Assembly: GCA_031549725.1 (NCBI GenBank)
Contig: JAVBPH010000017.1
Span: 236 to 64,235, forward strand
Direction: 5' to 3'
DNA length: 64,000 nt
From: Treponemataceae bacterium
GTDB taxonomy: Bacteria > Spirochaetota > Spirochaetia > Treponematales > Breznakiellaceae
A model generated the notes under the pieces. That model was not told the DNA's origin. It did not search any database and saw nothing but the letters and a program-made list of their open reading frames with translations. The translations under genes were made by a program, and so were the position numbers. Every line of letters starts with the position of its first letter. The first letter of the stretch is position 1. Below are positions 2,375 through 64,000 of the stretch, piece by piece.

Positions 2375-4234
2375 ATGAGCACAGTAAAATTAACCGTAGG
2401 ACAGGCCCTGGTCCGGTTCCTGGATAATCAATACATAAACGTCGACGGCGAAGAAATTAAATTCGTCACCGGTGTGTTCGGCATTTTTGGTCACGGTGTG
2501 GTGGTTGGTTTCGGGGAAGCCCTGGCAGCTAAGGATCACAGCTTAACCTTTTACCAGGCAAAAAACGAACAGGGCGGCGCCCATGCAGCCATGGGCTATG
2601 CAAAACAGAACAACCGCCGGAGGATGATGGCGGTAACCAGCTCCATCGGTCCCGGTGCCCTTAACATGGTTACCGCCGCAGGAACCGCCACGGTGAACCG
2701 TATTCCCGTGCTTTTCCTTCCCGGCGATGCCTTTGCCTGCCGCCAGCCCGATCCGGTGCTGCAGCAGGTGGAGACTCCCCAGGATTATACCTCCACGGCC
2801 AGTGATGCCTTCCGGGCGGTGAGCCGTTACTGGGACCGGGTAAACCGTCCGGAACAGCTTATGACCGCCATGATCAATGCCTTCCGGGTCCTGACCGATC
2901 CTGCGGAAACCGGGGCGGTTACCGTCTCCCTGCCCCAGGATGTTCAGGGAGAAGTATACGATTACCCCGAGGAATTCCTTGCCAAGAGGGTTCACTATAT
3001 AGAAAGAAGACCCCCCACAAAATCCCAGATTGAACGGGCGACTGCCATGCTTAAGGCTGCAAAAAAACCTATGGTGATCTGCGGCGGCGGAATCCGTTAT
3101 TCCGGCGCCGGGATAGCCCTGGAAAAATTCTGTAAAGCATACCATATTCCCTTCGGGGAAACCCAGGCCGGCAAGGGAACCATCCTCTGGGATAATCCCT
3201 ACAATCTTTCGGGTATCGGGAACACCGGGGCCGAGGGGGCCAACAAACTGGCCAAGGAAGCGGACCTGATTATTGCCGCAGGAACCAGACTGGGGGATTT
3301 TACCACCTGCTCCAAGTGGCTTTTCCAGAATCCCGACGTGAAAATCATGGGTATCAATATTGCACCCTTTGATGCATACAAGATGAACGGACTCCCTTTT
3401 ATTGTTGATGCAAAACTGATGCTCGAAGCCCTTAATAAAAGCGCATCAGGTTACAAAAGCAAATGGGGTGAGGAAATAAAAAAAACAAAGGAAGCATGGA
3501 ACAAGGAAGTAGACAGTCTCTACACCCAGGAGGACCCCGCGGGGCTTTCCCAGGTCCGGGTGTTGGGGGAACTCAACGACCGGCTTCTGCCGAAAAATGC
3601 TATTGCCGTCTCCGGGTCCGGGTCCATTCCCAGCGACATGCAGCGGGTATGGCGGACCAGGGTGAAAGATACTTATCATATGGAATACGGTTTTTCCTGC
3701 ATGGGGTATGAAATCGCCGCGGCCCTGGGAACAAAAATTGCCAGACCGGACCAGGAAGCAGTGGCCATCGTGGGGGATGGAGCTTATACCATGCTCCACA
3801 CCGAGCTTCTTACCGCAGTACAGGAAGGGAAAAAAATTATTGTGGTGGTTCTGGATAATGCGGGGTTCCAGTGCATCGACAACCTCCAGGGCAGCCAGGG
3901 AATTGGCCATTTCGGCAACGAATGGAAAAAGCGGAATGCAAAATCAGGCAGACTTGACGGGGCTCCGGTCCAGGTGGACTACGCCAAAAATGCCGAAAGC
4001 TGGGGAGCCCGGGGACTCAGAGCCAAGACGCCTGAAGAATTAAAAAAGGCCGTCAGAGCAGCCCTGAAGGAAACAGGATCGGTGGTAATCGATGTGAAGG
4101 TCACCCCCAAATCCATGACCCATGGATATGATGCATGGTGGCGGGTAGGAACGGCCCAGGTATCTGCCAATCCGAAGGTTACCAAGGCAGCCAAGGAAAT
4201 GCAGGCGGAAGCCGCAAAGGCAAGAAAATTCTAA
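2375..4234 (+). CDS. iolD: 3D-(3,5/4)-trihydroxycyclohexane-1,2-dione acylhydrolase (ThDP-dependent)
   Basis: 619-aa ORF with the architecture of a ThDP enzyme, including the GDG...N motif (IVGDGAYTML...VLDNAGF). RBS aaaggag. iol gene context. Confidence 0.9.
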   Translation: MSTVKLTVGQALVRFLDNQYINVDGEEIKFVTGVFGIFGHGVVVGFGEALAAKDHSLTFYQAKNEQGGAHAAMGYAKQNNRRRMMAVTSSIGPGALNMVTAAGTATVNRIPVLFLPGDAFACRQPDPVLQQVETPQDYTSTASDAFRAVSRYWDRVNRPEQLMTAMINAFRVLTDPAETGAVTVSLPQDVQGEVYDYPEEFLAKRVHYIERRPPTKSQIERATAMLKAAKKPMVICGGGIRYSGAGIALEKFCKAYHIPFGETQAGKGTILWDNPYNLSGIGNTGAEGANKLAKEADLIIAAGTRLGDFTTCSKWLFQNPDVKIMGINIAPFDAYKMNGLPFIVDAKLMLEALNKSASGYKSKWGEEIKKTKEAWNKEVDSLYTQEDPAGLSQVRVLGELNDRLLPKNAIAVSGSGSIPSDMQRVWRTRVKDTYHMEYGFSCMGYEIAAALGTKIARPDQEAVAIVGDGAYTMLHTELLTAVQEGKKIIVVVLDNAGFQCIDNLQGSQGIGHFGNEWKKRNAKSGRLDGAPVQVDYAKNAESWGARGLRAKTPEELKKAVRAALKETGSVVIDVKVTPKSMTHGYDAWWRVGTAQVSANPKVTKAAKEMQAEAAKARKF

Positions 4235-4260: not shown

Positions 4261-4631
4261 GTGAACCCTTCAAGTCTTCAGGGACCGGAGTTATCCCGGT
4301 GGTTGAGGTTCTCGAAACCATCGGCGAAAGAAAACTTGTTCGTCACGGGGCCCTTCGAGAGCCTCAGGGACCGGAGTTTTCCGGTGGTTGAGGTTCCCGA
4401 AACCCACCAGCGAATGAAAGCTTGTTCGTCACGGGGCCCTTCGAGAGCCTCAGGGACCGGGGTTGTCCCGGTGGTTGAGGTTCTCGAAACCACCAGCGAA
4501 AGAAAGCTTGTTCGTCACGGGGCCCTTCGAGAGCCTCAGGGGCCGGAGTTTTCCGGTGGTTGAGGTTCCCGAAACCACCAGTGAATGAAAGCTTGTTCGT
4601 CACGGGGCCCTTCGAGAGCCTCAGGGACCGG
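4261..4631 (+). repeat. family A tandem array: about 4.4 copies of an 85-86 bp structured unit
   Basis: The anchor cccttcgagagcctcaggg recurs at 4266 (degenerate), 4351, 4437, 4523 and 4608. Each unit carries ccgg-N6-ccgg, ggtggtt...aaccacc and ttcgagagcctc...gaggttc(t/c)cgaa inverted repeats. Track ORFs on both strands here are repeat artefacts. Confidence 0.9.
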
Positions 4632-4701
4632 CATTTGGGATTTGTTCTGATGCCTCCGCGGAATGCGGGGACATCCTCGAAATAAGAAAGGAGTAAATTG
4701 T

Positions 4702-9570: not shown

Positions 9571-9754
9571 GGAACCAAAAACCTTCTGCACGCTTTCGCG
9601 TGCGAGGCAGAGCAGCGAGGTTTTTGGTTCTGTAAGGTATGGATGTTATGTGGGTTTAATACCCATACAATGTTCATTTACGAGATTTTAAGAACGCCCC
9701 GGAGCCTCGCACCCGGGAGCGTGCAGAAGATATTAAACCCACTTGCAAATAAAA
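9571..9754 (+). repeat. family B element, copy B1 (about 185-bp imperfect palindrome)
   Basis: Nearly identical to 56458-56638 and 63892-64000, and in reverse to 12446-12770. Internal inverted repeats: gaaccaaaaacct/aggtttttggttc, gcacgc-tttc-gcgtgc, gtgggtttaatacc...ggtattaaacccac, ttctgcacgc...gcgtgcagaa. Confidence 0.85.
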
Positions 9755-12151: not shown

Positions 12152-12445
12152 AACGAACTCCTTACCCCTTATTTATCTAAGGAACAAACAATGATTGGCA
12201 TCCCTACGTTACAGGATGTCGTAGAATTTTTATCTATACTATTATTAAAATAATTTCGATAAAATCCGTATAATGTTATTAAACCCCGCAGGGACCGAAA
12301 AAAGCTCCTGGTTTCGAATAATTTATACTGCATTATTCTTTAATATATCCCGGAAAATCGTTTTATCCATTTTTTCAAATTACTTTAAAACAACCACCTT
12401 TCCGGCTGACATGCCTTTTTCAAGACAAGTAACCATATGGGATGT

Positions 12446-12770
12446 TTTATTCGCAAGTGGGTTTAATACCTTCTGCACGCTCCCGGGTGGGAGGTTCCGG
12501 GGCGTTCTAAGGAAACACTGATTAATGCCCATAGTGCATTAATCAGTGTATTCTTTAATGCAGGCAATTCTTTGTGCAACAAAGAATTGCGGAGGGAACC
12601 GCTGATTGTCCGCATATTGCGGCCGGTTTAATCAGCGGTTTCCTAAAAATCTTGTAAATGAACATTGTATGGGTATTAAACCCACATAACATCCATACCT
12701 TACAGAACCAACAAACCTCGCCGCCCCGCGCGCTCTGCCTCGCACGCGAAAGCGTGCAGAAGGTTTTTGA
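12446..12770 (-). repeat. family B element, copy B2 (reverse orientation), interrupted by C1
   Basis: Reverse complement of the B consensus. The two halves (12446-12509 and 12644-12770) are contiguous in copy B3. Carries a 9-nt in-frame-length indel relative to B3. Confidence 0.85.
12510..12643 (+). mobile_element. family C MITE-like element, copy C1, nested in B2 with TA target-site duplication
   Basis: 134 bp. Terminal inverted repeats GGAAACACTGATTAA / TTAATCAGCGGTTTCC and three long hairpins. Filled site ttcTA[C1]TAaaaatc versus empty site ttcTAaaaatc in B3 (reverse complement of 56566-56576). Confidence 0.8.
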
Positions 12771-12899
12771 TTAACCGCATAATTTTAATATATTAGAAAT
12801 AGGATTCTGCGGATTATCCGGCGGGCTTTCCGGTTCTATTATTTTTATATGATCCGGTATATACTTTTTAAAATCCCTGGAACAGCATAGGTAGCACCC

Positions 12900-19691: not shown

Positions 19692-19854
19692 GAAGAACCC
19701 CGTGGCAGAGCCTCGGGGTTCTTCATTGTAGAGGAAATTATTATACAGGCTGAGGGTTCATACCACATACAAACGTTTCAACCTTCTTCCAGGGCGTTAA
19801 AAAATCAACCGATGCAAGCATCCCGGCATGAACTCCAACAGCCTTCCAATCAAA
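19692..19854 (+). repeat. family D element, copy D1 (about 165 bp)
   Basis: Near-identical to 39875-40039 and 53542-53705. Starts with the hairpin gaagaaccccg-N11-cggggttcttc. The core attgtagaggaaattattatacaggctgagggttcataccacatacaaacgtttcaacctt is conserved. Confidence 0.8.
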
Positions 19855-24629: not shown

Positions 24630-24727
24630 ATTACATTTTATTTCTGAATTTCTCCGGCGGATACTATATCCGCCTTCTGAAACTTGCCCCGGGATTCCCA
24701 GCAAATCCCGGGGCAAGCCCTATCTAA

Positions 24728-24858
24728 GGAAACACTGATTAATGCCCACAGAGCATTAATCAGTGTTTCCTTAATATAGGCAATTCTTTGTGCAACAAAG
24801 AATTGCGGAGGGAACCGCTGATTGGTCGCATATTGCGGCCGGTTTAATCAGTGGTTCC
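24728..24858 (+). mobile_element. family C MITE-like element, copy C2
   Basis: 131 bp, with the same three hairpins as C1 and C3. The first is a perfect 16-bp stem (aaacactgattaatgc / gcattaatcagtgttt). Lies between convergent genes. Confidence 0.85.
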
Positions 24859-24869
24859 GAAAAAATCCG

Positions 24870-27767
24870 TTAATTTTTCGGCGCCCTGCTTTCAGGGTAT
24901 AGGATCATCTTCAAAGGACCGCCGGTTTGAAGTACACCGGTTAATCTCTGCAGATCTCCGGGCTGCACATTGCCGTAGAGTTCCGGCCTGGCATACAGCC
25001 TGGACAGGGGCAGCTGAAAAATCTGGTTGTAGTTGGCAAAACTTCTTGCCATGTAACCGTTGCTCTGCATGGACTGCTCAAAGGTTTTTTTCAGGGCTTC
25101 CCTGGCTTTTACCAGGGTATCATTGCTGATGTTTCCTCTGCCGATCAAACCCAGTTCAGTGCTCACCGCTGCGGCCAGTTCCTCCGCCCGGCCGGGATCA
25201 CAGTAGAACGTAACTATCAAATACAGCTCTCCGCTGGGCATGGGGGTTAAACTGATGCTGGGAGATATGGAATAAACCCCGCCCAGCTTTTCCCGGATTT
25301 CTTCGGTGAGCCGGATATCCAGGTATTCATTCAGCACCAAGGCGCTGCTGAAATCCTTTTCGGAATAGGCCATGGGAATAAACCATCCCATAAAAACGAT
25401 GCCCTTATCTTCTTTTCCTTTGTACAGGATTTTCTCCTGTTTTCCCGGAAGGGGAATATGCATATCGGTCCAGTTATTGAACCGGGTATTTCCTTCCCCA
25501 TAGGCAGGGACCGAAGCCAGGTATTTTTCGGTAAGTTTTTTCAGCACCGCTTCGTCCGCATTTCCTGTAAACACAAACACATAGTCCGCCGGGTTCAGGG
25601 ATTTCTTAAGAAAAAGCTCCGCGGGTTTTACGGAGATTTTATCCAGATCCGCCAGAACCATAGGCCTGGTTTTGGGATAATTGCCGTACATGATCCGCTG
25701 CACCTCATCAAAAAACCATGATTCGGGGTTTTCCTGCCTTTGTGTCAGGGTTGTCCGGTACTGGTCCATGAGGACCGCCGCGGCATCCGCATCAATTCTG
25801 GGCTGGGTGAAGCCCAGGTAAAGCAGTTCAAAAAGTGTTTCCAGATCACCCGTGGCGGCGGTTCCCTGGAACCCCCGGAGATAAGAGGAAAGCCAAAAAC
25901 TCAGGGAGACCTGTTTGTCCGCCAGTTTTTTCAGGAGTTCGGTCCGGGTAAAATCCCCGGCTCCGGAATTGTTGAACATATCCGCCGCGGAGTACACCGA
26001 ATAATAATCCTCATCATCTGCGCTGGAGGTTCCCCCCTTTGCCAGCGCATAAAAAGAAACTTCGTTATTTTTATTTGCGGTGGTTTTGAATAAAACCGTT
26101 GCACCGTTGCCCAGGGTCCACTCAATAACCCCAGTGGCCTGGTCGGTTTTTTCATCGAGAATTGTTCCCGGCAGGGGATCGTTCTGAATCAAGTCGCCGC
26201 TGTAGGTTTCTTCTTTTGGTTTTTCAATTTTTGCTATTGCTGCCGCAGCAACCATAGCTTTTATGGCAGCCTGGTCCGGAAGGGAAGATGCATCGGTACT
26301 GGGGGCGGTGACAAAAACCGTCAGGTCATCATCCTTAAAAAAATCCTTAACCGCCGCGGCAAGTTCTTTCTGGCCGATCCCCGGAAGCAGCTTCTTTACC
26401 GCATTGAGTTCCCAGCTGATATCCGGCAGGCTGCTTCCGTCCAGGTAGTGCCGGGTAAGCTGCTGTATATAAGATGATGATTCCTGCCGGTCCTGTTCGG
26501 CGGTCATCTGTTCCATATCGGAAATCAACGATCGTTTGGCCATATCGATTTCTCCCTGGGTAAACCCGTAGCGTTCCATGGATTCCTTTTCCAGCAGAAC
26601 CGCATTCATTGTTTCCTTAGCCAAACCGGGCTTGGCAATTCCGGACACCACATAAAAACGGGAAGAATAGGCATAACGGGTTGTCCAGGCACCGGCGGCC
26701 ACATAGGGGGTTTCCGGTTTAGCCGCGGCTTCATCAAACCGGAGGTACATCATCCTGGAGATCAGGTTTTCAATCACGTCCTGCCGGTAGGATGATAAAT
26801 CCGCGGCGAGTACGCTGGGCTGCCGTTTGAAATAAAAATCCGCCCTGGTGTAGGTTAATTCGGGATCGGTAATAATCTCCGCCCGGAACTTTCCTTTTAC
26901 CGGCGCAGGCAAATCGTAATGGGGTTTATCCAGGGGTGTTGATAGAGGATCAGCCTGGAAATATTTTACCAATTCCGCTTCCAGGGCAGCGCCGTCAAAA
27001 TCACCCACAAAAATAACTGCCATGTTGTCCGGACGGTACCATCTTTTATAAAAACCCACCAGCCTCTCCGCAGGGGCATGTTCAATAATCTCGGGCAGCC
27101 CGATGGGAAGCCGGACCGCATAGGGGGATCCCTCAAAGAGGATGGGCAGCATTTTCCGCTGCACCCGTTCCCCTGCTCCCAGCCGGGACCGGTATTCTTC
27201 CATAATTACCCGGCGTTCCGCATCCACATCCTCAGGGATAAAACTGATGCGGCTGGTCCAATCGCTGATTACCTCCAGGGCTTTGTCGGGAATCATTTTT
27301 TTACCCGAATCCAGGGTTTCCACCGGGACTTCGATGCCGTAAACGGTTTCATCAAAATTGGTGTAGGCATTTACCTCCGGACCAAACCGCATGCCCAGGG
27401 ACCGGAGATAATTCACCAGTTCGGACTTGGGAAAATGTTCCGTGCCGTTGAAAGCCATGTGCTCCACAAAATGGGCAAGCCCCTGTTCATCATCCTTTTC
27501 CAGAACCGATCCGGCAGCCACCGCCATGGTTAAATATGCCCGGTTTTCGGGTTTTTTATTTTCCAGAATAAAATAGGTCAGTCCATTGGGGAGTTTCCCC
27601 GTCCGGGCGGATTCCATAAAGGGCACCGGGTCCATGGGTTTTCCCAGACCGGCATAGGATTCAACTTTTTCCGAAGGATTGCTTGAACATGCAGCGGTGT
27701 ACAGGATAAAAAAAACCACCGCAGCAGCCCGGATGCATTTTTTAATAGAGAAAAAATTCGTAGTCAT
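24870..27767 (-). CDS. M16 family zinc metallopeptidase (pitrilysin-like), lipoprotein
   Basis: 965-aa ORF with the inverted zinc motif HFVEHMAFNGT, duplicated M16 halves, and a signal peptide with lipobox TAAC. Confidence 0.9.
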   Translation of the reverse strand: MTTNFFSIKKCIRAAAVVFFILYTAACSSNPSEKVESYAGLGKPMDPVPFMESARTGKLPNGLTYFILENKKPENRAYLTMAVAAGSVLEKDDEQGLAHFVEHMAFNGTEHFPKSELVNYLRSLGMRFGPEVNAYTNFDETVYGIEVPVETLDSGKKMIPDKALEVISDWTSRISFIPEDVDAERRVIMEEYRSRLGAGERVQRKMLPILFEGSPYAVRLPIGLPEIIEHAPAERLVGFYKRWYRPDNMAVIFVGDFDGAALEAELVKYFQADPLSTPLDKPHYDLPAPVKGKFRAEIITDPELTYTRADFYFKRQPSVLAADLSSYRQDVIENLISRMMYLRFDEAAAKPETPYVAAGAWTTRYAYSSRFYVVSGIAKPGLAKETMNAVLLEKESMERYGFTQGEIDMAKRSLISDMEQMTAEQDRQESSSYIQQLTRHYLDGSSLPDISWELNAVKKLLPGIGQKELAAAVKDFFKDDDLTVFVTAPSTDASSLPDQAAIKAMVAAAAIAKIEKPKEETYSGDLIQNDPLPGTILDEKTDQATGVIEWTLGNGATVLFKTTANKNNEVSFYALAKGGTSSADDEDYYSVYSAADMFNNSGAGDFTRTELLKKLADKQVSLSFWLSSYLRGFQGTAATGDLETLFELLYLGFTQPRIDADAAAVLMDQYRTTLTQRQENPESWFFDEVQRIMYGNYPKTRPMVLADLDKISVKPAELFLKKSLNPADYVFVFTGNADEAVLKKLTEKYLASVPAYGEGNTRFNNWTDMHIPLPGKQEKILYKGKEDKGIVFMGWFIPMAYSEKDFSSALVLNEYLDIRLTEEIREKLGGVYSISPSISLTPMPSGELYLIVTFYCDPGRAEELAAAVSTELGLIGRGNISNDTLVKAREALKKTFEQSMQSNGYMARSFANYNQIFQLPLSRLYARPELYGNVQPGDLQRLTGVLQTGGPLKMILYPESRAPKN

Positions 27768-36250: not shown

Positions 36251-36715
36251 TTAATCAAAATCTTTTTTCAGATACACCATATCAACCAGCTGTATACCGT
36301 TATCAAAAATCGGATGATCATAATGATCGGTAAAAAAATTCTTCACCCTATGGGATACTTTAAATCCGCAGTGTTCATAAAAAGAAATTATGCCGGGACT
36401 TTCCCCGGTACCAACCAGCATGGAGGAAAATCTGTCTTTGTAATAATCAAAAAGAAATCTGACTAGCGTACTGCCGTACCCCTGTCCCTGGTATTCCGGA
36501 TTGGTGGCCAGGTTTTTTAATTCACAAACCGATTCATCAATTTTTGCCACCACGCAAATACTTTTAACATCATCATCAAACAGGGCAAACATATCTCCCT
36601 GTTCCAGATACCGGTCAATCATGCTTTCCTGTTCATCCGCCAGCAGGAGCAAATCGAGGAACTGTTTTTTGTTGCGGGTAATTTTTTCTATCCGCATGGA
36701 ATCTGTATTTTTCAA
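36251..36715 (-). CDS. GNAT family N-acetyltransferase
   Basis: 154-aa ORF with an acetyl-CoA binding motif ([10 protein letters not shown]) and the typical GNAT length. Confidence 0.8.
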
Positions 36716-36730
36716 AATGAAATCCTCCTA

Positions 36731-36863
36731 GGCAAACACTGATTAATGCCCACAGAGCATTAATCAGTATATTCTTTAATGCAGGCAATTCTTTGTGCAA
36801 CAAAGAATTGCGAAGGGAACCGCTGATTGGCTGCATATTGCGGCCGGTTTAATCAGCGGTTCC
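36731..36863 (+). mobile_element. family C MITE-like element, copy C3
   Basis: 133 bp, same three-hairpin architecture as C1 and C2. Its right end overlaps the last codons and the stop of the VOC ORF. Confidence 0.85.
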
Positions 36864-37209
36864 CCAGATAACCGGATGCTCGGCTCCTCCGGTTTGGTTT
36901 ATCCTGGTATATTTCCAGCCAGTGTCCGTCGGGATCTTCCAGGGTAAGCAGGCTGCCGTATTCTTCTTCCCGGATTCCCCCGATGCAAACAATTCCCAAT
37001 GCAAGTGCCCGGGTGTAAAATGCCTGAATATTCTCCGTCTCAAACATGATCCGGGTTTTTACCGGAACCACCTTCCTCTTTTCTTCCGGCCTTGTCAAGA
37101 GTGCAAACGAAGTTGTTCCCAGATCAAATTCAACCCATCCGTCATTCCGGAATTTCAGTTTCAATCCGATTTTGTTTTGATAAAAATCAACATGCCCCGC
37201 CGCAAGCAA
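36853..37209 (-). CDS. VOC (glyoxalase/bleomycin-resistance) family protein, probably truncated at both ends
   Basis: 118-aa ORF with a VOC-like core (DFYQNKIGL...LEDPDGHWLEIYQ). The TTG start lies inside repeat E1. The final codons and the TGA stop lie inside repeat C3. The N-terminal strand usual for VOC proteins is missing. Confidence 0.55.
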   Translation of the reverse strand: MLAAGHVDFYQNKIGLKLKFRNDGWVEFDLGTTSFALLTRPEEKRKVVPVKTRIMFETENIQAFYTRALALGIVCIGGIREEEYGSLLTLEDPDGHWLEIYQDKPNRRSRASGYLGNR

Positions 37210-37338
37210 CGGGGCATGTTGGTTCTGTAAGGTATGGATTATATGCGGGTTTCATACCCCGCAAAACAATTTCTTTGTTGCTTCAAAGAATCGACCTAAA
37301 AAGCGGGGTATGAAACCCACCTGCGAATCAATTGACCG
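37195..37338 (+). repeat. family E element, copy E1
   Basis: Matches 40043-40173: ccccgccgca..cggggcatgttggttctgtaaggtatggatt.tatgcgggttt.ataccccgca.aacaatttctttgtt.cttcaaagaatcg.cctaaa.agcggggt.t.aaaccc.cctgcgaat. Confidence 0.75.
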
Positions 37339-37461
37339 TTCTAAATGGCCCGAGTAAACCCACACCGCATCGATGCGTTTAATTTCCGAATTATGATGCA
37401 TGACTAACATCATACAGTTATTATGATTTCCGGGCAATGAATATTTTTAGGTTCTGTTTGT

Positions 37462-37610
37462 TCCTTCGACAAACCCAGGGCCTTACACCCCCCGGTGATT
37501 GAGGTTCTCGAAATCACCTGTGAAAGAAAAGCTTACTTTCTCACGGGCCCTTCGAGAGCCTCAGGGACCGGGATCCCCCGGTGATTGAGGCTCTCGAAAT
37601 CACCTGCGGA
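37462..37610 (+). repeat. family A, dispersed copy A2 (about 1.5 units, variant stem)
   Basis: Contains cccttcgagagcctcagggaccgg flanked by two ggtgattgagg(t/c)tctcgaaatcacc hairpins. The stem is ggtgatt/aatcacc instead of ggtggtt/aaccacc. Confidence 0.75.
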
Positions 37611-37631
37611 GGAAATGTTTATGTATTAATT

Positions 37632-39874: not shown

Positions 39875-40039
39875 GAAGATACCCCGGGGCAGAGTCTCGG
39901 GTTATCTTCATTGTAGAGGAAATTATTATACAGGCTGAGGGTTCATACCACATACAAACGTTTCAACCTTCATCCAGGGCGTTAAAAAATCAACCGATGC
40001 AAGCCTCGGGGTATGAACCCCAACAGCCTTCCACTCAAC
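39875..40039 (+). repeat. family D element, copy D2
   Basis: Second copy of the 165-bp element. Carries the internal inverted repeat gggttcatacc...ggtatgaaccc intact. Confidence 0.8.
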
Positions 40040-40042
40040 AAC

Positions 40043-40173
40043 CCCGCCGCATCGGGGCATGTTGGTTCTGTAGGGTCAGGATTTTATGCGGGTTTAATAC
40101 CCCGCACAACAATTTCTTTGTTACTTCAAAGAATCGCCCTAAAGAGCGGGGTCTTAAACCCGCCTGCGAATAA
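40043..40173 (+). repeat. family E element, copy E2 (abuts D2)
   Basis: See E1. Starts 3 nt after D2. Confidence 0.75.
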
Positions 40174-40344: not shown

Positions 40345-40418
40345 GGGGGTGTAGCTCAGTTGGCTAGAGCGTTTGAATGGCATTCAAAAGGCCAGGGGTT
40401 CAATTCCCCTCACCTCCA
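40345..40418 (+). tRNA. tRNA-Ala (anticodon GGC)
   Basis: Folded by hand into a 74-nt cloverleaf. The acceptor stem gggggtg/cacctcc has the G3:U70 alanine identity pair. Anticodon stem tttga/tcaaa with loop atGGCat. T arm agggg-ttcaatt-cccct. Confidence 0.9.
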
Positions 40419-40454
40419 GAATTTTCCATCTTTTTTCCAATATTTTATTTTGCC

Positions 40455-42104
40455 ATGAGTGAAAACGATATGTTCCAGGGCGACATGGATCCTGAAATTG
40501 CTGAACTCCTGGGTGCTTCCACCGGATCAAATCAAACCTCACAGAAAGACATTCCTCCGGATTACTCAAGCCTTTTTAATGATGATGAAAGAGAAGAGGT
40601 GGATGCGCCGGAAATAGATCTTACCGAAACTTCCTTTCCCCAGATTACAAAACGTTTTTCAGATACGCCCATTACCATTTTTAACGATCCCAATTATTAT
40701 AAATCCGTCCTTTCCAGTGAGGGTGATATATCCCAGCGGGTGCATAATATCCTGCAAAAATATATCAATGCCAAAGACCCAAAGGACAGGAGCGTCTTCC
40801 GCCAGCAGTTTATCACCGCATACTGGGATTTCCTTATTAATATTGCCAGAAAAACCCCGGGGAGAATTCCCGAAGCAAAAAGAAACCTGCTCCGGTTCGG
40901 CATTCTCCACCCCAATTTTATTGAAGCCGGTGACCGGGAATTTTTTTCCAAAGTCATTGTAGAAAACGACATGAACCAGCCCATTTATTATCTTGATGAA
41001 TGGATTAAGGCTGTGGGAACCGGCGCCATAAGAAATTCCAGTACCGATGAGGTCCGGATTGCCAAGTCCAATTCCCAGATGAAACTGATGCAGCTCCTGG
41101 AAAAAGCTGCGGGAAAAAGGGATGGAGCCAAGAATCTTTTAAAGGCAAAAAGCGAAGAGCGGATACACTTTGAAAACACCCTTAAGCATAAGATGGATTT
41201 TATAATGGAACATTATCCCATAGAGGGTATGTCCGATATTTACTCGAATTATACGGAAACCCAGAAAAAGGAATTTTCGGAAATTCAGGAAATCCTGAAA
41301 ACCATGCTCCGGTCCGACCGGGAGCTGGAACTATTTATCCGGGATTTCCGTCAGGCCGAAGCGGATGTAAGAACCATAGAGCAGAAAATTGAAGAGGAAG
41401 GGGTGGTTGTTGAAGTTGACATGAGGGCAATAGATACGGAATTTGAAACTGTCCGGCAGATGACTAAAATGACCATTGGCCGGCAGGGAAACCATTTCCC
41501 TATCCTCACCAAGGAATACTTCCGCTGCAGCCCCAACGATATAGCATACCGGGAAAATGTAATTCTCATCCTTACCTGGCTGGAAAGTATTGATCCGGAA
41601 GTGTTCTGCCGGTCCTACAAAAACCGCCTGAACCGGATTGTTCCTTACATTGTATTACTGCCTTCTTATGGGGATATGGGGATCTGCTGGGAACCCTTTG
41701 ACCGGTTCAACCGGGCCACCAGCCGGGGCCGGATTGCATTGCCCATGTACCCAAAAAACCTGAACCTGGCAATCCTTTCCGCCGCGGCGGACCTGCGCTG
41801 GCAGGTTGCAAAGGAAAAGGCTTCCTATTACTGGATGGAGGAAGGCATCACGGGTAATTATTACCAGTGGTTTACCTCCAGGAAACTGAAGGGCGACGTG
41901 AAGGAATACTTTATACAGGATTACATCATCTGGATTACCAAGGAAAGCGAAGGCATCCAGAAACTTGATAAGGAAATCCGGGGGTTTTTCTGGCGTTACC
42001 TGCCCTTCTCCCAGGCGGTTAAGGATAAACTGAAAGGCCGGAGCTATGTGTACCAGGAACTGTACCAGCGGGATATAAACCGGTCCATGTCCGACGGGTA
42101 TTGA
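40455..42104 (+). CDS. conserved hypothetical protein
   Basis: 549 aa from ATG 40455 (MSENDMFQGD). The track start 40377 lies inside the tRNA-Ala gene and is rejected. No recognisable motif. Confidence 0.6.
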   Translation: MSENDMFQGDMDPEIAELLGASTGSNQTSQKDIPPDYSSLFNDDEREEVDAPEIDLTETSFPQITKRFSDTPITIFNDPNYYKSVLSSEGDISQRVHNILQKYINAKDPKDRSVFRQQFITAYWDFLINIARKTPGRIPEAKRNLLRFGILHPNFIEAGDREFFSKVIVENDMNQPIYYLDEWIKAVGTGAIRNSSTDEVRIAKSNSQMKLMQLLEKAAGKRDGAKNLLKAKSEERIHFENTLKHKMDFIMEHYPIEGMSDIYSNYTETQKKEFSEIQEILKTMLRSDRELELFIRDFRQAEADVRTIEQKIEEEGVVVEVDMRAIDTEFETVRQMTKMTIGRQGNHFPILTKEYFRCSPNDIAYRENVILILTWLESIDPEVFCRSYKNRLNRIVPYIVLLPSYGDMGICWEPFDRFNRATSRGRIALPMYPKNLNLAILSAAADLRWQVAKEKASYYWMEEGITGNYYQWFTSRKLKGDVKEYFIQDYIIWITKESEGIQKLDKEIRGFFWRYLPFSQAVKDKLKGRSYVYQELYQRDINRSMSDGY

Positions 42105-53541: not shown

Positions 53542-53705
53542 GAAGAACCCCGACGCAGAGCCTCGGTGCATCTTCGTTGTAGAGGAAATTATTATACAGG
53601 CTGAAGGGTTCATACCACATACAAACGTTTCAACCTTCATCCAGGGCGATAAAAAATCAACCGAGGCAAGCATCGTGTATGAACCCCAACAGCCTTCCAA
53701 TCAAA
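53542..53705 (+). repeat. family D element, copy D3
   Basis: Third copy of the 165-bp element. The first hairpin is degenerate here. Confidence 0.8.
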
Positions 53706-56371: not shown

Positions 56372-56456
56372 CCCTTCATGATTCGAGAGCCTCAGCACAA
56401 GTAACCCCAGGGCCCGGAGACTCCCGGTGGTTGAGGCTCCCGAAACCACCTGTGCA
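56372..56456 (+). repeat. family A, dispersed unit A4
   Basis: attcgagagcctcag...cccggtggttgaggctcccgaaaccacctgtgc, immediately left of B3. Confidence 0.7.
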
Positions 56457-56457
56457 A

Positions 56458-56638
56458 TCAAAAACCTTCTGCACGCTTTCGCGTGCGAGGCAGAGCAGCG
56501 AGGTTTGTTGGTTCTGTAAGGTATGGATTTTATGTGGGTTTAATACCCATACAATTTTCATTTACAAGATTTTTAGAACGCCCCAGAGCCTCGCACGCGG
56601 GAGCGTGCAGAAGGTATTAAACCCACTTGCGAATAAAA
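56458..56638 (+). repeat. family B element, copy B3 (uninterrupted)
   Basis: Full-length B copy. Provides the empty-site sequence for the C1 insertion. Confidence 0.85.
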
Positions 56639-56644
56639 ACTTTT

Positions 56645-56722
56645 TTATCACAAGGCCCTTCGAGAGCCTCAGGGCCCGGATGGAATCTCCCGGTAGTTGG
56701 AACTCTCGAAACCACCAGCGAA
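56645..56722 (+). repeat. family A, dispersed unit A5
   Basis: cacaaggcccttcgagagcctcagggcccgga...cccggtagttggaactctcgaaaccaccagcgaag, immediately right of B3. Confidence 0.7.
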
Positions 56723-63856: not shown

Positions 63857-63891
63857 GCGGAATATGGGCTAACTTGGTTAGAAAGCTTATA

Positions 63892-64000
63892 ATCAAAAAC
63901 CTTCTGCACGCTTTCGCGTGCGAGGCAGAGCGCGCGGGGCGGCGAGGTTTGTTGGTTCTGTAAGGTATGGATTTTATGTGGGTTTAATACCCATACAATT
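63892..64000 (+). repeat. family B element, copy B4 (cut by the window end)
   Basis: Identical architecture to the left half of B3. Carries the same 9-nt longer variant as B2. Confidence 0.85.

Follow-up and report, generated by a model that had tools for sequence, protein, structure and literature searches.

A 132-bp non-coding mobile element, probably an IS5-family derivative, nested in another intergenic repeat with duplication of its CTAA target

Correia and RUP are MITEs that duplicate TA. Family C, the repeat family described here, resembles such elements, which are about 100-160 bp long, lie between genes, have inverted ends and contain TA within their target; they duplicate TA only, whereas C and its sister elements show 4-bp duplications and carry IS5-family ends. 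IS5 of E. coli (IS5A/InsH) has ends that begin with GGAA, as do those of C, and makes a 4-bp duplication at 5'-YTAR-3', a target established in E. coli by reconstructing 220 duplications made by IS5 (PMC5009759). C differs from IS5 in being 132 bp long and without a gene, in its end sequence (GGAAACACTGATTAAT against GGAAGGTGCGAATAAG in IS5, 9 of 16 positions matching) and in that each C end lies inside a hairpin that holds a second, inward-facing copy of the end. Like C, BrickBuilt, MITE293 and MITE700 of Porphyromonas gingivalis and ATR/ISNme1 of Neisseria are short, non-coding and bounded by IS5-family inverted ends, and the P. gingivalis ISPg elements with matching ends are reported to insert often into other mobile elements (PMC4596501). 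The end sequences of these MITEs (GAGACCTT...) differ from those of C and their reported duplications are variable; moreover, a cognate insertion sequence for C was not found within the 64-kb window. Chunjie of Geobacter uraniireducens is a MITE found in the intergenic spacers of operons (PMC3184786), and one copy of C, C3, also lies between two co-oriented genes, but Chunjie is 178-235 bp long with 21-bp ends and 9-bp duplications. IS5-derived MITEs and their nesting are already known, and C adds no new mechanism.

The 64-kb stretch of DNA that we analysed (the window) probably comes from a termite-gut spirochaete that has no close relative among GTDB representatives, JGI metagenomes or the protein collection. 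Matches of its histidine kinase had first suggested Clostridia, a placement that was given up; exact L34 matches and the rpmH-rnpA-yidD-yidC-jag-DUF6675 synteny lead to MAGs with accessions in the WQ/WR series, to which termite-gut MAGs also belong, and to JGI/ENA metagenome contigs. The window carries housekeeping genes of a chromosome, among them purL, pgk, rpmH-rnpA-yidD-yidC-jag and flagellin, and Pfam and NCBIfam searches of about 45 open reading frames found no transposase of any kind in it. The window holds four copies of an intergenic repeat, family B, of which one, B2, is interrupted by a copy of family C (C1), together with two diverged B-like copies (37201-37328 and 40044-40171). 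The features of the nested locus and of the B copies compared with it are as follows.

9573-9754, plus strand: B1, uninterrupted; site TTAAG (reverse complement CTTAA), one base off B3
12445-12506, minus strand (relative to B1, B3 and B4): first part of B2, colinear with the reverse complement of B3 (94% in the repeat search)
12507-12510, plus strand: first copy of the target-site duplication, CTAA, B sequence; at this position CTAA occurs just once in the B3 reverse complement
12511-12642, plus strand: C1, 132 bp, a probable IS5-type MITE, from end motif, repeat search and fold
12511-12525, plus strand: left end of C1, GGAAACACTGATTAA
12511-12553, 12564-12590 and 12595-12642: hairpins 1, 2 and 3 of C1
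12628-12642: right end of C1, reverse complement GAAACCGCTGATTAA
12643-12646, plus strand: second copy of the target-site duplication, CTAA, from the alignment
12647-12773, minus strand: second part of B2, 99% identical to B4 and 90% to B3, with a 41-nt stretch 100% identical to B3
56456-56638, plus strand: B3, uninterrupted; empty site TTAG (reverse complement CTAA) at 56573-56576
63890-64000, plus strand: B4, partial, ended by the window edge before the insertion site; 99% identical to B2

The initial annotation of this DNA had described B2 as split by C1, with B3 as an exact empty site, and had proposed aligning the two. Our MAFFT alignment of 12430-12790 with the reverse complement of 56440-56660 bears this out and confirms B3 as uninterrupted: B2 (12445-12773) corresponds to the reverse complement of B3 (56456-56638) apart from one gap of exactly 136 nt, and the two are colinear and about 93% identical on either side of this single 136-column gap. 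The reverse complement of B3 across the empty site, ggcgttCTAAaaatcttg, agrees with the sequence first quoted; B2 across the insertion reads ggcgttCTAA[GGAAACACTGATTAA...TTAATCAGCGGTTTC]CTAAaaatcttg, and the empty junction reconstructed in the B2 context is ggcgttCTAAaaatc. C1 has thus inserted into B2, and B3 preserves the exact empty site. The 136 nt of inserted DNA consist of the 132-bp element (12511-12642) and 4 bp, and CTAA is the junction repeat (12507-12510 and 12643-12646), with TA as no more than its core. The insertion and its target duplication therefore stand as first described, but the length of 134 bp (12510-12643) and the duplication of TA are replaced by 132 bp and CTAA. By themselves, the junction letters of B2 and B3 are compatible with a 2-, 3- or 4-bp duplication. 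C1 is a non-coding mobile element inserted in another intergenic repeat, with its CTAA target duplicated, and this copy moved after B2 was already in place; the earlier claim that C has been mobile and moved after B is supported by the target duplication in a pre-existing B copy.

A filled and an empty site alone give no direction, and since a 4-nt direct repeat can mediate deletion, the ancestral B could have carried C, which B1 and B3 would then have lost, either excised precisely or removed by a deletion between the CTAA repeats. We regard this reversed polarity as very unlikely, because C stands alone at two other loci without surrounding B sequence, because B1, B3 and both B-like copies (37201-37328 and 40044-40171) all lack C, and because elements with the same ends and 4-bp duplications occur in unrelated contexts in other metagenomes; even if it were true, C would still be a mobile unit. 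Nor is the nesting of C1 in B2, in any obvious way, an assembly artefact. Exact-protein look-ups located this organism in one other assembly only, built independently from short reads (Logan SRR23967709). Its contigs match the sequence flanking the repeats at 100% identity and stop within B2 (12745) and C2 (24752), which is how real repeats would behave, and a chimeric join of B2 and C1 would give no clean 4-bp duplication. The locus is a clean, internally controlled record that a MITE was once mobile in this uncultured gut bacterium, with filled and empty sites in one genome.

Three copies of C were found in the window by repeat search and nhmmer, all on the plus strand (12507-12643, 24723-24859 and 36728-36864, at about 12.5, 24.7 and 36.7 kb). 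The two copies outside B2 are these.

24728-24858, plus strand: C2, 131 bp, flanked by CTAA (24724-24727) and GAAA (24859-24862)
24728-24770: hairpin 1 of C2, a perfect 18-bp inverted repeat, followed by TTAA
36732-36863, plus strand: C3, 132 bp, flanked by CTAG (36728-36731) and CCAG (36864-36867)

The element is 131-132 bp long and non-coding, with no open reading frame beyond spurious short ones. An Rfam search of C gave no family, and that of the window gave only tRNAs and chance sub-threshold matches. As the initial annotation had recognised, the element is bounded by terminal inverted repeats; they are 15 nt long, GGAAAC[A/G]CTGATTAA, and the two ends are inverted repeats of each other at 12-14 of 15 positions. 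When the end pattern GGAAACNCTGATTAA was searched for with at most 2 mismatches, the window gave 9 matches against 0.8 expected, 8 of them within the three C copies. These copies are 90-93% identical to each other, and differences of 7-10% suggest that the family is not very young. The duplication around C1 is perfect, in a B2 copy that is 99% identical to B4. Those of C2 (CTAA/GAAA, 2 of 4 positions) and C3 (CTAG/CCAG, 3 of 4) are imperfect, with a perfect YTAR only in the left flanks; these target duplications are decayed, that of C2 more so. A similarity between the flanks of C2 and B2 (CCGGGGC..., AAAAATC) was also seen, and a larger mobile unit was considered on this basis and rejected: the left flank of C2 is an unrelated 14-bp hairpin. 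C3 lies between two minus-strand genes (in the region 36728-37209). A 118-aa VOC/glyoxalase-like ORF (36853-37209) enters C3, its TGA stop being supplied by the right inverted repeat, and the CTAG flank on the left of C3 overlaps the Shine-Dalgarno sequence, AGGAGG, of an acetyltransferase gene that lies downstream and starts with TTG (36251-36715).

Relatives of C were sought in public metagenomes with the 18-nt left end of C, GGAAACACTGATTAATGC, which matched 85 stretches. About 60 of the 85 were discarded because they were the start of purH (...RALISVSDK in the reverse complement); as this case illustrates, conserved coding 18-mers swamp 18-nt end scans. Ten short, gene-less elements on unrelated contigs have the left end of C together with a recognisable inverted right end. 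These sister elements are listed with their lengths and their left and right flanks.

L113: 113 bp, CTAA / CTAA
L165: 96 bp, CTAA / CTAA
L146: 110 bp, CTAG / CTAG
L134: 41 bp, CTAG / CTAG
L166: 41 bp, CTAA / CTAA
L106: 140 bp, TTAA / TTAA
L151: 67 bp, TTAG / TAAG (near-match)
L170: 68 bp, TTAA / TTTA (near-match)
L124: 112 bp, TTCG / TCGG (no YTAR duplication)
L111: 41 bp, TCAG / TTAT (no YTAR duplication)

Perfectly matching 4-bp flanks (CTAA, CTAG or TTAA) are present in 6 of the 10. At flank positions 1 and 4 the left and right sides agree in 20 of 22 comparisons (counting L114, a complete insertion sequence described below), while these positions differ between elements. Because they co-vary between the two sides and vary among elements, positions 1 and 4 belong to the duplicated target and not to the element; a duplication of TA only would leave them constant inside and unrelated outside, contrary to what the sister elements show. 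The same co-variation is seen at position 4 in the window (A/A in C1, A/A in C2, G/G in C3), where the left flanks of C1, C2 and C3 are all YTAR (CTAA, CTAA and CTAG). The flank set CTAA, CTAG, TTAA and TTAG corresponds to the YTAR motif of IS5. If 4 bp are duplicated, the lengths come out at 132 bp for C1 and C3 and 131 bp for C2 without any indel at the ends; at the right end of C, a C-to-T substitution is enough.

These observations bear directly on the initial reading of C as an IS630/Tc1-mariner MITE that duplicates TA only, with NTAN or something like CTAG as its possible site. IS630 duplicates TA on entering CTAG-like sites, TA is the core of the junction repeat, and the three left flanks contain TA. 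However, the bases beside TA are duplicated too, being repeated at the C1 junctions and co-varying in the sister elements (CTAA/CTAA, CTAG/CTAG, TTAA/TTAA) and in C3 (..G/..G), and the claim of a TA duplication is not upheld. A TA-only model also makes the ends of C1 unequal (AGGAAAC... against ...GTTTCC) and introduces an indel relative to C2 and C3. C copies lacking TA flanks had been named as evidence that would count against the TA reading, and TA is absent to the right of both C2 (GAAA) and C3 (CCAG).

The autonomous elements that carry the ends of C point to the same family as the flanks. The metagenomic contig Ga0209170_1036116 (L114) contains a complete insertion sequence of 1186 bp, CTAA|GGAAACACTGATTTATTCC...CATTAATCAGTGTTTCC|CTAG, comparable with the 1195 bp and 326 aa of E. 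coli IS5A, whose ends start with GGAAGG. Its open reading frame of 327 aa matches the NCBIfam IS5-family model NF033581 at 334 bits (cut-off 140) as well as Pfam DDE_Tnp_1 and DUF772, and the encoded transposase is 49% identical to InsH1 of E. coli K-12 IS5 over 318 aa (E = 5e-112). One end of L114, GGAAACACTGATTAATGC, matches C at 18 of 18 positions, a match that is partly by construction as this was the searched pattern; the other end, GGAAACACTGATTTATTCC, was not searched for and matches at 16 of 19. A truncated second copy of this insertion sequence, with TTAA alongside, is present in L118. An IS5-family element on plasmid pTH1 of Hydrogenophilus thermoluteolus TH-1 (WP_119336222.1) reads TTAG|GGACACACTGATTTAT...GCGTGTCC|TTAG; its transposase is 69% identical in amino acids to that of L114, and its end GGACACACTGATTTAT matches that of C at 14 of 16 positions. 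The pTH1 element and L114 share with C the terminal sequence GGA(A/C)ACACTGATT(T/A)AT and have flanks of TTAG/TTAG and CTAA/CTAG, respectively. Unlike C, both are autonomous and have proteobacterial hosts, and their similarity to C does not extend past about 18 nt; the L114 transposase itself looks proteobacterial (about 72% identity to that of an Aromatoleum insertion sequence). With no more than these 18 nt or so in common with C, L114 is related to it at the level of the family but is not its parent, and the interior of C is not derived from L114 by deletion, which leaves the family assignment of C unaffected. An Aminobacter insertion sequence (L180) has related ends, that copy being without a duplication.

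Among the 85 stretches and pTH1, the autonomous elements found with the ends of C were of the IS5 family only, and no IS630-type gene was seen among them. An autonomous element with related ends, which the initial annotation had proposed to search for as an IS630-type one, thus exists as an IS5-type one; C remains a non-autonomous MITE with inverted ends, reassigned from IS630/Tc1-mariner to IS5 by its ends and 4-bp YTAR duplications, and we consider the IS630 reading extremely unlikely. At the level of sequence comparison, C has ends identical to those of a complete IS5-family insertion sequence, and its sisters carry 4-bp YTAR duplications. We are therefore confident, though short of certain, that C is an IS5-family-derived MITE and that C1 entered B2 at CTAA, duplicating this target. 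In the mechanism that we propose, a transposase would bind the terminal inverted repeats of about 15-18 bp (GGAAAC[A/G]CTGATTAA) and make a 4-bp staggered cut at YTAR, here the CTAA in the unpaired AT-rich interior of the B2 foldback; the 132-bp element would be joined at the cut, and gap repair would yield CTAA...CTAA. Mobilisation would presumably occur in trans, with the cognate transposase encoded elsewhere in, or formerly in, this genome, and could follow either cut-and-paste or copy-out chemistry. For annotators, the IS5 assignment indicates which transposase to seek and which target motif (YTAR) to expect.

C folds into three consecutive hairpins (z of about -11 as DNA and -12 as RNA; C1 as DNA, -44.6 kcal/mol and z = -11.2). 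In hairpins 1 and 3 alike, an end that faces outward is paired with a second copy of its motif that faces inward, and CTGATT(A)A is present four times per element. Three strong hairpins, one of them at each end, would also suit a single-stranded hairpin moved by a Y1 enzyme (IS200/IS605 or RAYT/REPIN-like) or by a site-specific recombinase beside CTAR, without true duplication; that all three copies lie on one strand and that the left flank is CTAR in 3 of 3, with a perfect right match only in C1, would fit as well. Such a route is highly improbable, in our judgement, because the ends of C are true inverted repeats, which is not an IS200/IS605 feature, because the right-hand 4 nt differ among the C copies and so represent flank and not a cleavage motif, because the sister elements show perfect 4-bp direct duplications, and because these ends are also those of a DDE element of the IS5 family; that all three copies share a strand has a chance probability of 0.25.

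Within the IS5-type reading, the construction of C is of further interest. Hairpin 1 is 43 bp long and comprises the end, a 7-nt loop and the inverted end; in C2 it is flanked by CTAA and TTAA. Three of the sister elements, of 41 bp (L134, about 3924-3964; L166, 151-191; L111, 10237-10277), are made up entirely of two inverted ends with a 6-nt loop between them (GGAAACACTGATTAATGC-CTCAAG-TATTAATCA.CGAACCC) and are built like hairpin 1 of C (window 12511-12553 and 24728-24770). Two of the three (L134 and L166) have a perfect CTAG or CTAA duplication. The 41-bp units could be minimal IS5-type MITEs, and their structure suggests that two bare ends may suffice for mobility. A tentative idea, which we think unlikely, is that C is a modular composite with a minimal IS5-type substrate as its basis. 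If units of 41-43 bp that have nothing but two ends do transpose, they would rank with the shortest mobile DNAs known from bacteria; C would then be a "composite transposon" on the MITE scale, with its outermost ends responsible for its movement, and the stacked A, B, C and D repeats between the genes of this genome (see below) would record repeated nesting of such units.

Further searches added no copy of C to the three in the window. No match was found to a 29-mer of the C core in GTDB species genomes or to a 23-mer of the C core in JGI metagenomes, and viral contigs matched neither the pattern of hairpin 1 nor a B core. Spurious open reading frames on further copies, sought by means of a pseudo-peptide translated from C, gave no candidate among 5.8 billion proteins. 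Neither nhmmer, run with profiles for B and for C, nor a fuzzy search for paired inverted ends found a copy in 80 GTDB loci holding homologues (23-56% amino acid identity) of the histidine kinase in the window, nor in ten 20-kb loci of termite-gut relatives; the only profile matches outside the window were in the Logan contigs of the same organism. Relatives among MAGs and JGI/ENA contigs with the same L34 and the same rpmH-rnpA-yidD-yidC-jag-DUF6675 synteny are 65-75% identical in DNA and are without B or C, and orthologous empty sites for C2 and C3 were not found in the closest genomes (65-75% identical coding DNA).

The surrounding repeat, B, is itself structured. B3 forms a foldback with subterminal inverted repeats of about 27 bp (z = -7.3), and the CTAA struck by C1 is located in the unpaired AT-rich interior. 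In the two B-like copies (37201-37328 and 40044-40171), the long-range stem GTGGGTTTAATACC / GGTATTAAACCCAC of B is preserved because changes on one side are matched on the other (TATTAAA to TATGAAA alongside TTTAAT to TTTCAT, and GTGGG/CCCAC to GCGGG/CCCGC), which suggests that the foldback structure has been maintained. B4 and the corresponding arm of B2 are 99% identical, and both contain 9 nt, GCGCGCGGGG, that B1 and B3 lack; in B4 some 10 nt separate the end of the window from the C insertion site, and the comparison covers the arm before the site only. The sequence AAAATCTTGTAAAT, found in the MITE interiors of L124 (14 of 14) and L113 (13 of 14), is the B sequence at 12647-12660, immediately to the right of C1; 0 of 2000 shuffles reached the score of the 14-nt identity between L124 and B, which was spotted by eye and may be due to chance.

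Two other repeat families accompany B and C. Family A consists of 85-86-bp units in tandem arrays (4263-4661, 37459-37615, 56391-56461 and 56619-56722), and B3 has A units on both sides. Where two A units join, the sequence (GAAACCACCAGCGAATGAAAG...) shows homology to B at its right end (AAACCCACTTGCGAATAAAA...), and A and B therefore share a module. Family D, of about 134 nt, has a GC-rich hairpin before each copy (19720-19853, 39905-40038 and 53572-53705); the copy at 39905 directly abuts the B-like copy at 40044-40171, upstream of tRNA-Ala. The intergenic regions of this genome are mosaics of at least four stacked repeat families, which explains why short-read assemblies fragment at exactly these points. 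Elsewhere in the window, the Rfam "Histone3" stem-loop was matched at 26057-26102 (34.7 bits against a gathering score of 34) inside an M16 peptidase gene, a match that is almost certainly spurious in a bacterium. A 575-aa open reading frame (40377-42104), without a Pfam match, begins inside tRNA-Ala(GGC) (40345-40418), and its true start is probably further downstream.
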